32,750 nucleotides of DNA from Candidatus Geocrenenecus huangii (GTDB taxonomy: Archaea; Thermoproteota; Nitrososphaeria_A; Caldarchaeales; Wolframiiraptoraceae): positions 1 to 32,750 of the forward strand of contig JALNLM010000016.1 in NCBI GenBank assembly GCA_023254095.1, read 5' to 3'. Shown piece by piece: positions 22,484-26,374 of the stretch. Below the pieces are notes generated by a model. The model was not told where the DNA came from, made no database searches, and saw only the letters and a program-made list of their open reading frames with translations. The stretch's first letter is position 1. Each line of letters begins with the position of its first letter. The translations under genes and the position numbers were made by a program.

Positions 22484-22570
22484 CCAGCCAGATACAGTAT
22501 AGGAATGGCGTTCATGAAAGTCTCCAATGAAAAATTGGAGACTAGATGCTGATGAGCCCTGAAGCTCAAG

Positions 22571-22625
22571 ATGAAGCATCTACAGGAATAAGAGATACCG
22601 CAAACTAGATAGTAGAAGAACCCAC
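22571..22625 (+). repeat. 5' arm of the 23S processing stem with BHB motif
   Basis: GCATCTACAGGAATAAGAGATA-CCGC-AAA-CTAGATAGTAGAAGAA is the inverted repeat of 26213-26264. Confidence 0.9.
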
Positions 22626-23852
22626 ACCCTAGGCCTGAAAACGCCGACCGGTGGATGCCTCGGCTCAGGCGCCGAGGAAGGACGTGGCAAGCTACGAAAA
22701 GCCCCGGGTAGCCGCAGGCGGGCGTTGATCCGGGGATCTCCGAATAGGACTTCCAGGGAACTCGACCTTTACGGGTTGAGTTCTCACTCCCGGGTTTAAC
22801 CCTGGGAGAGGGAACCTCCCGAACGGAAGCATCCAAGTAGGGAGAGGAAAAGAAACCAAGATGGGATTCCCTGAGTACCGGCGAGGGAAAAGGGAGGAGC
22901 CTAAACCAAACCTCTAGAGGATAACTCTAGAGGGATGTGGGGTGATGGACCTGGGGCCCACCCTAACCCATCGATCCGAAGTGCTCTGGAACGGGCCGCC
23001 GAAGAGGGTGAAAGCCCCGTAGGAGAAGATGGGAAGGGTGATGCCCGGGTTCCCGAGTACCACACCTTGAATATGGTGTGGGAAGTTGGGGGCCATCGGC
23101 CTCCAAGGCTAAATACGTCCTGAGACCGATAGCGCACCAGTAGCGTGAGCGAAAGGTGAAAAGTACCCCGGGAGGGGGGTGAAAAGCGTCTGAAACCGGT
23201 CGGTAACAGACGTGTGCGGCCTGAAAGGGTAATCCCCACGAAAACTCCTATCATAGGGGTTGAGTGGGGATACCAGGGTCGCACGCTCCGTCTTGAAACA
23301 CGGGCCGGGGAGTGCATGGTCGTGGCGAGCCTAAGGGTTCTAAAGCCCGCAGGCGTAGGGAAACCGACTAGCCCGTAGCCGGAGAGTTCCGGCGAGAGGC
23401 GAGGTCCCATAAGGGCCTGTAGTCACGGCCATGCGGCTAGAAACCGGGCGATCTAGCCCTGGGCAGGGTGAAGCCGGGGGAAACCCCGGTCGAGGCCCGT
23501 AAGAGGTCCTGACGTGCAATTCGGTCTCCTGACCTGGGGCTAGGGGCTAAAAACCAATCTAGCCCGGTGATAGCTAGTTCCCCCCGAAGTGTCTCGCAGG
23601 ACAGCCTCAGGCGAGGTAGCCCGCGGGGTAGAGCACCGATAGGGGAGTAAGGGCTCGAAAGGGCCCGCTTTCCTTTCGAACTCCGAATCTGCGGGCGCCG
23701 TAGACCCTGGGAGTGGGGGATAGGGGGTAAGCTCCTATCCCGAGAGGGGAACAACCCAGACCTAGGGTTAAGGCCCCTAAGTGCCCGCTAAGTGAACAAA
23801 CCAAAGGGCGTCTCCAGCCTAAGACAGCGGGGAGGTAAGCTTAGAAGCAGCT

Positions 23853-23891
<39 letters not shown>

Positions 23892-24408
23892 GGAGGCCCC
23901 GAAAATTGACGGGTCTAAGCGGGCCGCCGAAACCCTGGACTACTGGGCAGAGATGCCTAGTAGTGGTAGGGGGGCGTAGCGGCTGGGTAGAAGCTGGGCC
24001 GTGAGGTCCAGTGGACCGGCCGCTAATGTAGATCCCGGTGGTAGTAACAGCAAAGCGGGGTGGGAATCCCCGCCACCGAAGGGGCAAGGGTCTCCCGGCA
24101 ATGCGTCGTCAGCCGGGAGTAAGCCGGTCCTAAGGCTGACCTTAACTGGGTAGGCCGAAAGGGAAACCGGTTAATATTCCGGTGCCGTGGAGGTAGGATT
24201 GCGGTGACGCAAGCCGGCTCCCTGACGCTTCGGGGTAGGCTGAGCCAAGTTGTAGCTTGGTCTAACCTCATAAGCCTGGGGAGTGCCGTAAAGGCGAGAA
24301 CCAGGTGAAAGAGGGATGGGGCCCCCGTATGGGGGCTTCAGCTGATCCCTGGAGCCGGTGAAAAGGGGAGCTGGAACGAGCCTCCGCGACCGTGCCAAGA
24401 ACCGACAC

Positions 24409-24856
24409 ACCGGCAGCCTCAGGCATCTTTATTAAATTCCTAAGAGGAGTCTTCTCTACTAAGGAAATGAATCATATCGAAGTTACCGAGATTGTGGGCC
24501 GACACATCGCTGACGGGTTATTAATCAAGAGCCCGAAAAAGAAATGGCTATAAAGTAATTTTGACAGAAACTTTACCGGCAAGGAATAATAGATTGCGAT
24601 GAAACAATTTATTATGATAAGAACAACAAACTATGGATTACCCAAGCTAAATGTAATTCACTATGATATAACAAAATTTATTGAGAAAGTGTTAAACCCA
24701 ATCCCACATGAAATTTATTTTATGTAAAAAGTGAAAAAGTGTGGATACAGAAAGACATCCTATGCCTTAAGGATTTAGGTGAAAGAAGAATATCTTACGT
24801 CATCTTAAGGTTATAGGTTCCTTGAAAATTAAGCCTGGGTTTGCTGCCGGGTCGAG
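24409..24856 (+). mobile_element. 448-nt archaeal BHB intron in the 23S (about E. coli 1617/1618)
   Basis: AT-rich insert; CCGGCAGC/GCTGCCGG stem, bulges ACA and AGA, central CGAC/GTCG helix; excision restores ACCGACAC|AGGTGCCCC. Confidence 0.93.
24422..24835 (+). pseudogene. decayed LAGLIDADG homing endonuclease inside intron 1
   Basis: Fragments in shifting frames: FLRGVFST, MNHIEVTEIVGRHIADG (ATG 24467 to TAA 24553), YKVILTE, IYYDKNNKLWI, ILRHLKVIGS; several stops and frameshifts. Confidence 0.65.
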
Positions 24857-25145
24857 AGGTGCCCCTAGGTGAGAAGCCTCAGGTGTGTGGGGTGACTCCG
24901 GGCGAGGGAACTCGGCAAACTAGCCCCGTACCCTCGGTAGAAGGGGTGCCTGCAGTCTTAGGCCACGTGCCTGGGACCGCAGGTCGCAGTGACAAGGGGG
25001 TCCCGACTGTTTAATAAAAACATAGGGAGCCGCAAGACCGAAAGGTCGTGAACGGCTCCTCAATCCTGGCCAGCAGGGGTACCTGAACCCCGGGTCCAAC
25101 CGGGATAAGGGCTCCTAAACGCCGGGAGTAACTCTGACTCTCTTA

Positions 25146-25202
25146 ACGAGGACCTGCCCACCGTCATTGGAGGCTCATGAGGTGGGTGAGGCCTCGGGAG
25201 AA
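25146..25202 (+). mobile_element. 57-nt hairpin BHB intron in the 23S (E. coli 1927 site)
   Basis: Outer ACT/GGT, central CTCT/GGAG, bulges TAA and AAA, inner CGAGG/CCTCG; excision restores GACTCTCTTA|AGGTAGCC. Confidence 0.93.
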
Positions 25203-25790
25203 AGGTAGCCAAATGCCTTGTCGGGTAAGTTCCGACGTGCATGAATGGATCAACGAGGGCCCCGCTGTCCCCGTCCGGAGCCCCGTGAACCCACATAACC
25301 TGGATGAACAGTCCAGGATCTCCCAGCGGGGAGAGAAGACCCTGTGGAGCTTTACTGCAGCCTGTCGCTGCGGCATGACTGGAAGTACAGAGCGTAGCCG
25401 GGAGCCGTAGATCCCAGCCTCTCCGGGGGCTGGGGGAGGCGACGATGTAACACCGGCTACTTCTGGTTGTGCCGCTAACCGGGGCCTGTGCCCTGGGACA
25501 ACGGCAGGTGGGCAGTTTGGCTGGGGCGGCACCCCCTCGAAAAGGTATCGAGGGGGCCCAAAGGTCGGCTCAGGTGGGACAGAAACCCACCGTAGAGTGC
25601 AAGGGCAAAAGCCGGCCTGACTGCGCCCTTGACAGTAAGGGGCGCAGGGGGGAAACCCGGGCCTAGCGATCCATCGTCTCCCACCGATGGGGGACGGTGG
25701 TGACAGAAAAGTTACCCCAGGGATAACAGGCTCGTCGCGGGCGAGAGTCCCCATCGACCCCGCGGCTTGGTACCTCGATGTCGGCTCTTC

Positions 25791-25822
<32 letters not shown>

Positions 25823-25838
25823 CGCCTGTTCGGCGATC

Positions 25839-25883
<45 letters not shown>

Positions 25884-26212
25884 ATTCTACCTGCTGGGAG
25901 CGGTGGCCGCTTGAGGGGAAGGCGCTCCTAGTACGAGAGGAACGGAGCGCCGGGGCCAACTGGGTACCGGTCCTCCTACAGGGGGTAGCCGGGCACCTGC
26001 GCCCCAGCGAATAAGGGCTGAAAGCATCTAAGCCCGAAGTCGCTCCCGAGATTAGGCGGCCACTTAGAGGCCATGGGGCTTGGCAACAGGCCTCGGCCTC
26101 TAACGAGGGCGCCCGTAGAAGACGGGTTTGATGGGGTGGAGGTGTAAGAGCGGAGGCCTTGTGCCGGACGCTCTCAGCCTGCCACTCCCAACTGCCCGGA
26201 GGGGCCTAGGGT

Positions 26213-26264
26213 CTTCTTCTACTATCTAGGCGAATGTATCTCTTATTCCTGTAGATGCTTTCAT
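26213..26264 (+). repeat. 3' arm of the 23S processing stem
   Basis: TTCTTCTACTATCTAG-GCGA-ATG-TATCTCTTATTCCTGTAGATGC is complementary to 22571-22620. Confidence 0.9.
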
Positions 26265-26374
26265 GGAAGCTTTCATATATCGTGGAGTCATTATCTTTCC
26301 GGGAAAAGGATTGCTCAACTCCATCATTGTTAATAGAAATATACATGAGGACCAGTAGATGATTATTCGAGTAG

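Follow-up and report, generated by a model that had tools for sequence, protein, structure and literature searches.

A probable BHB intron, with the remains of a homing endonuclease gene, in the 23S rRNA of an uncultivated archaeon from hot springs

We analysed a 32,750-nucleotide stretch of DNA (hereafter the window) from the uncultivated archaeon Candidatus Geocrenenecus huangii, which is contig C31 of a 32-contig, 1.61-Mb genome assembly (G000) that is 96% complete. Public sequencing runs that contain the stretch are labelled as hot-springs metagenomes, and when words were sampled from positions 24250-25010, a fraction of 0.70-0.97 was present in each of nine DNA runs from three studies. 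An Rfam scan of the window detected one RNA gene only, an archaeal LSU rRNA, and this was the single 23S match in the whole 1.6-Mb assembly. The gene and its insert are as follows.

22627..26211, plus strand: archaeal LSU (23S) rRNA gene in which the intron lies (Rfam RF02540, 2714.3 bits, model positions 1-2987).
24409..24856 (equivalently 24410..24857), plus strand: intron of 448 nt with 36% GC (insert relative to the covariance model; absence in relatives; RNA circles in runs X10 and X11).

The sequences flanking the 23S gene (22545..22625 and 26212..26290) are predicted to form a long processing stem, with a cofold energy of -108.4 kcal/mol. The 22.6 kb that precede the 23S gene contain no 16S gene, which is instead on a separate contig of the same assembly (L001; contig C24, 1..949, minus strand), where it is cut by the contig end at model position 832 of 1478. 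Near model position 137, this 16S gene has a 102-nt insert where the model has a hairpin loop of 3 nt. The insert is possibly a further intron, or else an expansion, and intron polymorphism may lie behind the contig break.

Alignment of the 23S gene to the archaeal LSU covariance model, which had been proposed as a check in a preliminary description of the locus, placed 449 extra bases after ...CCGACAC (ending at 24408), with the exon match resuming at GGUGCCCC (24858). As one of these bases is a consensus A the insert is 448 nt in length, and since 24409 and 24857 are both A, removal of either 24409..24856 or 24410..24857 gives an identical product, ACCGACACAGGU. The GC content is 0.359 in the intron compared with 0.617 in the exons, and both this and the alignment agree with the preliminary description, in which a 448-nt AT-rich insert had been placed at 24409..24856. 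Using BLAST against 76 genomes we found that the 23S exon matches abut at 24409/24857 in 37 of the 40 same-order genomes that contain the region, and all three same-genus genomes with the 23S region are intronless, at an exon identity of 91-97%. The only carriers among the 40 were the window itself, G011, which belongs to another genus of the same family and has a 658-nt insert at the identical position, and G035, which belongs to another family and has a 29-nt insert at the site. Judging from these sequence comparisons, the 448-nt stretch is an insertion rather than a lineage-specific expansion.

The ends of the insert and the adjoining exon bases can be modelled as a BHB, and its elements are listed in their order along the window.

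24392..24396, plus strand: 5' strand of a displaced outer helix, pairing with 24858-24862, with a 6-nt loop (24397-24402) before the central helix (RNAcofold of the two halves, -37.1 kcal/mol).
24403..24406, plus strand: exon strand of the 4-bp central BHB helix (CGAC), pairing with 24851-24854 (GUCG), 4/4 Watson-Crick.
24407..24409, plus strand: 5' three-base bulge (AC/A) with the 5' splice site, cut after 24408 (geometry; RNA circle junction).
24410..24417, plus strand: 5' strand of the 8-bp inner helix h', pairing with 24843-24850 (cofold; covariation).
24418..24424, plus strand: 5' strand of a second inner stem, pairing with 24833-24839 over 7 bp that include one G-U, beyond a UUU bulge (MFE and cofold).
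24833..24839, plus strand: 3' strand of the second inner stem, pairing with 24418-24424.
24843..24850, plus strand: 3' strand of inner helix h', pairing with 24410-24417.
24851..24854, plus strand: intron strand of the central BHB helix (GUCG), pairing with 24403-24406.
24855..24857, plus strand: 3' three-base bulge (AG/A) with the 3' splice site, cut after 24856 (geometry; circle junction).
24858..24862, plus strand: 3' strand of the displaced outer helix and start of exon 2 (cofold; a contig from run X11 continues with 24858-24872).

The predicted cuts lie after the second base of each bulge, i.e. after 24408 and after 24856. The exact BHB geometry that had been claimed was recovered, with a 4-bp central helix between two 3-nt bulges and an 8-bp inner helix, as was the second inner stem of 7 bp between 24418-24424 and 24833-24839, and the product that splicing was expected to regenerate is that of the Rfam consensus and of intronless relatives. 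The description of the outer helix as weak was also accurate, as the outer exon-exon helix has a single adjacent pair, with the 5-bp helix in the cofold displaced behind the 6-nt loop; this is not canonical, and as modelled the window's BHB is a relaxed form with a weak and displaced outer helix. Furthermore, in the minimum free energy fold of the whole region at 37 °C the 3' end of the intron pairs with an upstream exon copy of CGAC (24387-24391) and not with the proximal one, and in these predictions the canonical BHB is not the sole fold open to the precursor. The Rfam consensus has a 2-bp CC/GG hairpin here, in which C24402 pairs with G24859 and C24403 with G24858. As C24403 pairs in this hairpin but with intron bases in the BHB, the precursor must pair differently to be cut, and the earlier argument that the rRNA hairpin has to refold is therefore sound.

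To this we added RNA evidence, and contigs from three metatranscriptome runs (X10 and X11, from one study, and X14) and one DNA run (X7) were compared with positions 24250-25010 at 97% likeness; these RNA data are assembled contigs and not reads, and give no measure of abundance or of the absence of unspliced precursor. X10 and X11 each contained one 478-nt contig which covers 24409..24856 and joins 24856 back to 24409 (it 'goes back 448'), where the shorter side of the joint is 223 letters in X10 and 135 letters in X11, with a one-base ambiguity due to the shared A. The length of 478 equals 448 + 30, from which we infer a closed cycle of 31-letter words, and the internal point at which the circle is opened is not the same in the two contigs. 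Relative to the window they have 8 and 7 changed letters, respectively, and because these differences are only partly shared, the X10 and X11 circles are two variants; their source is close relatives of the window's strain, and not provably that strain itself. Within the BHB core and second stem (24409-24424 and 24833-24856) there were no listed variants. In the DNA run X7, a 545-nt contig runs straight through 24342-24886 and across both junctions, with no circle joint. The circle joint between 24856 and 24409 in RNA, together with this uninterrupted DNA contig, shows that the intron was excised and circularised exactly at the positions predicted from the BHB, and the intron circle that had been suggested as a check is thus present in the RNA contigs of two runs.

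A further contig of X11 (record 11) matches 24342-24409 with 0 differences and then continues for 15 letters identical to 24858-24872, where the bridge threshold of the tool is 31 letters. Over the same 68 exon bases there are 3, 3 and 9 mismatches between the window and the three genomes of the genus that lack the intron, which favours spliced RNA of an intron-bearing lineage as the source of the contig, on a thin bridge of 15 letters, although an unsampled intronless strain with identical exons could be an alternative source. The exact RNA circles in X10 and X11 and this one spliced-junction contig support the initial view of a BHB intron that does not stay in the rRNA. Only a joined form with 43 diverged letters was found in X14, which we take to be from a relative and to be neutral as evidence. 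The circle contigs had depths of 588 and 296, compared with 419 and 178 for the 5' exon contig, which would suggest that the circle is abundant, although such depths cannot rank abundance.

Within the intron we located the remains of a protein-coding gene, in two parts.

24467..24578, plus strand: N-terminal remnant of a LAGLIDADG homing endonuclease, residues 1-37 of an intact relative (tblastn with the 205-aa ORF of G011; two frames and a stop).
24580..24866, plus strand: C-terminal remnants of the endonuclease, residues about 109-204 (tblastn, summed E 4.6e-18; three frames, with an in-frame stop).

The 658-nt intron of G011 contains an intact 205-aa ORF with two LAGLIDADG motifs, which matches PF14528 (LAGLIDADG_3) with an E-value of 4.7e-13. 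When the window intron was searched with this protein using tblastn, residues 1-25 were matched at 72% identity and residues 17-37 in another frame, while the C-terminal blocks (residues about 109-132, 132-174 and 177-204) lie in three frames, with the loss of ~70 codons (38 to about 108) between the two remnants. This internal deletion was mapped by tblastn, as a MAFFT alignment of the window and G011 introns misplaced it. In the second LAGLIDADG motif of the window the last G is changed to E, the longest ATG-started ORF in the intron is 42 aa, and the fragments gave no Pfam match at E<=1. The endonuclease gene of the window is dead.

Intact ORFs of 204-222 aa, with pairwise identities of 45-98%, are present in the introns of G011 and of loci L092, L096, L103 and L109, which are 632-661 nt in length; of these five, G011 was the one scanned against Pfam. 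Introns of 382-479 nt contain partial ORFs, and the remaining introns at the site contain none. The endonuclease family is small, with 5 relatives among 169 candidates from a search of 5.8 billion proteins, and a scan of close relatives with the G011 endonuclease returned no record beyond its own. Its best PDB match is an intein endonuclease domain (E 5e-4), and the family is distant from solved structures.

We also searched for introns at the same site in other archaea using a degenerate pattern that combined the intron side of the central helix with two bases of the bulge and conserved positions in exon 2. Because this pattern dictates exon 2, the length of the bulge and the central helix on its intron side, the hits agree in these features by design, and independent evidence comes from the inner helix and the 5' side only. 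A scan of the genome collection gave 9 loci, all of which have the exon-1 motif upstream, with inserts of 29-658 nt, and the matching records were as follows.

G011, record titled 'Thaumarchaeota archaeon': genome-collection match.
'Nitrososphaeria archaeon' MAG: 29-nt insert, the same as that of G035.
Three MAGs titled Sulfolobales, Pyrobaculum and Desulfurococcaceae: 44-nt inserts with identical flanking exons.
Four MAGs titled Promethearchaeota (Asgard): 30-31-nt inserts.

Given their identical flanking exons, the Sulfolobales, Pyrobaculum and Desulfurococcaceae MAGs are possibly one lineage binned three ways. Likewise, a metagenome scan gave 42 loci, 38 of which have the exon-1 motif, with inserts of 29-887 nt. 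One metagenome locus, L087, is truncated by a contig end, and two others, L079 and L088, have no exon-1 motif upstream and were rejected, as they look like chance matches in unrelated sequence.

In total 48 introns at the site were scored (the window and 47 public loci), and these comprise 32 different sequences with 28 different BHB cores. Of the 28 cores, 26, 25, 27, 26 and 28 are paired at inner-helix positions 1 to 5, respectively, and each position is formed by 3-5 standard pair types, which constitutes strong covariation. In L094, a further metagenome locus, the exon has the variant CAAC and the intron has GUUG opposite it, so that both strands of the central helix have changed in a compensatory way, while the 29-nt mini-intron of G035 has two compensatory double changes relative to the window. 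All scored introns restore the same exon sequence, and in size they form a series from intact forms of ~630-660 nt, through decayed forms of ~380-480 nt and stubs of 39-122 nt, to bare BHB hairpins of 29-44 nt. The site had been thought unusual, and this did not hold, with introns at the exact position in the 9 genome-collection loci and 38 of the 42 metagenome loci. The site is recurrent across uncultivated archaea and not peculiar to the window's genome, and we regard this recurrence as the more interesting result.

Among these loci, L078, L081, L096 and L114 have introns of 67, 451 and 654 nt at the same site, with exons identical to those of the window over the stretches shown, but their inner helix is different from that of the window and their endonuclease is 45% identical (222-aa ORF, L096), which indicates that at least two intron lineages circulate in or near the genus. 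We also observed that the Asgard-type inserts of 29-31 nt (L064-L066, L071 and about 20 metagenome loci) often have two tandem copies of the motif GUCGAU (or GUCGAC) near the 3' end, and that the inner helices of these putative mini-introns are short or interrupted (2 bp, a mismatch and 5 bp).

The 23S gene of the window contains a second insert, of 57 nt (25146..25202), at about E. coli 1912-1926. Examined by hand, this is predicted to form a canonical BHB with a 3-bp outer helix, a central 4 bp between 25140-25143 and 25197-25200, bulges of UA/A and AA/A, and a 5-bp inner helix between 25147-25151 and 25192-25196, and its predicted removal restores CUCUUAAGGUAGCC. Many relatives lack the 57-nt insert (L006, for example, joins 25146 to 25202), while other relatives have inserts of about 510-1140 nt at or near 25146..25202. 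Across the 23S genes of the order (L003-L031), inserts of 63 to about 700 nt were also present at six or more further places, at positions equivalent to 23519, 23872, 24066, 25018, 25229 and 25725 of the window, or about 753, 1096, 1286, 1784, 1953 and 2449 in E. coli terms. In L024, an Rfam scan at gathering score returned the LSU match only.

The assembly of the window encodes two paralogues of the splicing endonuclease (PF01974), in open frames of 193 and 186 aa that score 92 and 71.8 bits (L072 and L073), and one RtcB ligase (PF01139, 570 bits). Lineages of this kind have a heterotetrameric splicing endonuclease. For a related archaeon a heterotetrameric enzyme is also stated by Nunoura et al. 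(PMC3082918). We read the insert as a classical archaeal BHB intron in 23S rRNA, which arrived as a mobile element with a LAGLIDADG homing endonuclease gene that has since decayed, and give this a probability of roughly 0.93. In the precursor, the final bases of exon 1 would pair with the 3' end of the intron and replace the small hairpin of the mature rRNA, giving a fold in which a 4-bp helix lies between two 3-nt bulges and is backed by the 8-bp intron helix. Both bulges would then be cut by the host splicing endonuclease, presumably a two-subunit enzyme, and RtcB would join the exons to restore the conserved ACCGACACAGGU. The intron is closed into a stable 448-nt RNA circle, as observed in the RNA contigs, and the enzyme here would probably again be RtcB. 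In the past, the endonuclease gene would have driven insertion into intronless 23S genes at the conserved site; with the gene dead, the intron would persist only because it is cleanly spliced out.

Three other explanations were weighed against this reading. The BHB might be cut and the insert removed but the exons not religated, which would leave the mature 23S fragmented or permuted at the site, an outcome reported for helix 98 of Pyrococcus furiosus 23S (PMC7758197). The circle proves excision only, and the exon junction is seen in a single contig with a 15-letter side, but this X11 contig does join exon 1 to exon 2 with an exact match to the window's exon allele, the join restores a sequence that is conserved across the Rfam model and that every intron at the site restores identically, and RtcB is encoded in the genome; we consider unligated exons very unlikely. 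An expansion segment or disabling insertion that is retained in the rRNA, or a chimera of assembly, would also place an AT-rich insert in a MAG rRNA gene, and such inserts can indeed be misassemblies. However, 0.70-0.97 of the words sampled across the region are present in nine DNA runs, which come from three studies, the X7 DNA contig spans both junctions, the RNA form is a circle and not an insert within exon context, and the gene is the sole 23S found in a 96% complete genome, which together make retention or a chimera extremely improbable.

Another possibility is that the insert is a group I intron that splices itself, with ends that look like a BHB without being one. LAGLIDADG-bearing group I introns are listed for archaeal LSU genes, including those of related archaea, in Table 1 of PMC6125680, and although no group I family reaches the gathering score in the window, the sensitivity of this Rfam test is doubtful, since the 1.1-kb insert of L024 is likewise without a group I match. 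A group I intron also has against it that the 5' exon ends in C or A and not in U, that introns down to 29 nt at the site keep the same geometry and are too short for ribozymes, that the circle is full-length with its joint exactly where the BHB predicts it, and that the inner helix covaries; the chance of a group I intron is vanishingly small. We therefore retain the reading of a BHB intron with a decayed endonuclease gene.

We then placed the site in E. coli numbering. The motif CCGACACAGG occurs at 1610-1619 of a 2,903-nt E. coli 23S copy, which puts the cut at 1616/1617 in that copy, and as we take the A before GG to be the methylated A1618, the cut would be at 1617/1618 in conventional numbering, presumably at the 3' end of domain III. 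The position of about 1617/1618 given in the preliminary description is right to within one base of the motif position in the E. coli copy. For this numbering we used a match in domain V and a MAFFT alignment followed by the exact position of the motif, as MAFFT misplaced the bases adjacent to the intron, and no match to E. coli genomes was obtained when the 5' exon was the BLAST query. The 23S intron sites of Desulfurococcus mobilis, Pyrobaculum organotrophum and Aeropyrum pernix are in domains IV and V.

Full-text literature searches returned no paper in which an archaeal intron is named at this site, and a search for the intron names L1616-L1619 gave no title on rRNA introns. As the classic intron catalogues are outside the coverage of these searches, the site may be unreported, which is possible but unproven. 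Positions 1616-1619 are absent from the main text of a survey of rRNA insertions in CPR bacteria (PMC11270868). From the Lokiarchaeota LSU sequences of Penev et al. (2020; PMC7594248) 'known intronic regions' were taken out, the positions of which are absent from the available passages and one supplement file, while Jay and Inskeep (2015; PMC4496867) dealt with 16S only and, in the passages available, considered genomes too few for a robust analysis of 23S intron diversity. Nawrocki et al. (2018; PMC6125680) list archaeal group I introns at LSU 1923, 1931, 2500 and 2593, and mention co-occurring BHB introns with no positions in the passages and Table 1 of that paper.

Site 1617/1618 is recurrent and possibly uncatalogued. 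A broader reading, which we put forward tentatively and would not expect to hold in full, is that 1617/1618 is an uncatalogued site that is among the most widely shared archaeal rRNA intron sites and has its own LAGLIDADG_3 family. It would be occupied in hot-spring Nitrososphaeria, in the MAGs titled Sulfolobales, Pyrobaculum and Desulfurococcaceae, and in Asgard archaea (Promethearchaeota) as mini-introns of 29-44 nt, and these might persist because precise loss is hard or because transient mis-pairing of the hairpin has been co-opted for a step of large-subunit assembly.

For annotation, short BHB inserts at the site could be mistaken for expansion segments in the 23S genes of uncultivated archaea, and they can break assemblies and distort both alignments and rRNA-based phylogenies. 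The one site also provides a complete decay series, from an intact endonuclease gene to a bare BHB hairpin in several lineages and with RNA evidence of excision for one member, which makes it useful for following the rise and fall of homing endonuclease genes and bears on whether BHB mini-introns are ever lost. In addition, the endonucleases with intact ORFs are candidates for thermostable rare-cutters with a putative new target.

The mechanism of splicing itself is not new and is as known for archaeal rRNA introns. BHB introns with LAGLIDADG genes occur in the 23S rRNA of D. mobilis, P. organotrophum and A. pernix, and the window intron shares with these a junction BHB that is the presumed substrate of the tRNA splicing endonuclease, release as a stable circle, an ORF of ~200 aa with two LAGLIDADG motifs (intact in relatives of the G011 type), and a highly conserved rRNA target that is occupied patchily among close relatives. 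It differs in that its site is at the 3' end of domain III, while theirs are in domain IV or V, and in that its endonuclease gene is dead and belongs to a small family far from solved structures. The 23S rRNA of Staphylothermus marinus contains small introns of about 55 nt with no ORF, and the 29-44-nt introns at the site and the 57-nt insert at 25146..25202 likewise consist of a BHB core and a short loop, whereas the 448-nt window intron is intermediate, with recognisable wreckage of a gene. Finally, the 16S introns of Thermoproteales and Aigarchaeota, as presented in the available passages of PMC4496867, similarly have insertion loci common to distant lineages, conserved cores that form a BHB, nested homing endonuclease genes, and both intron-bearing and intron-free alleles.
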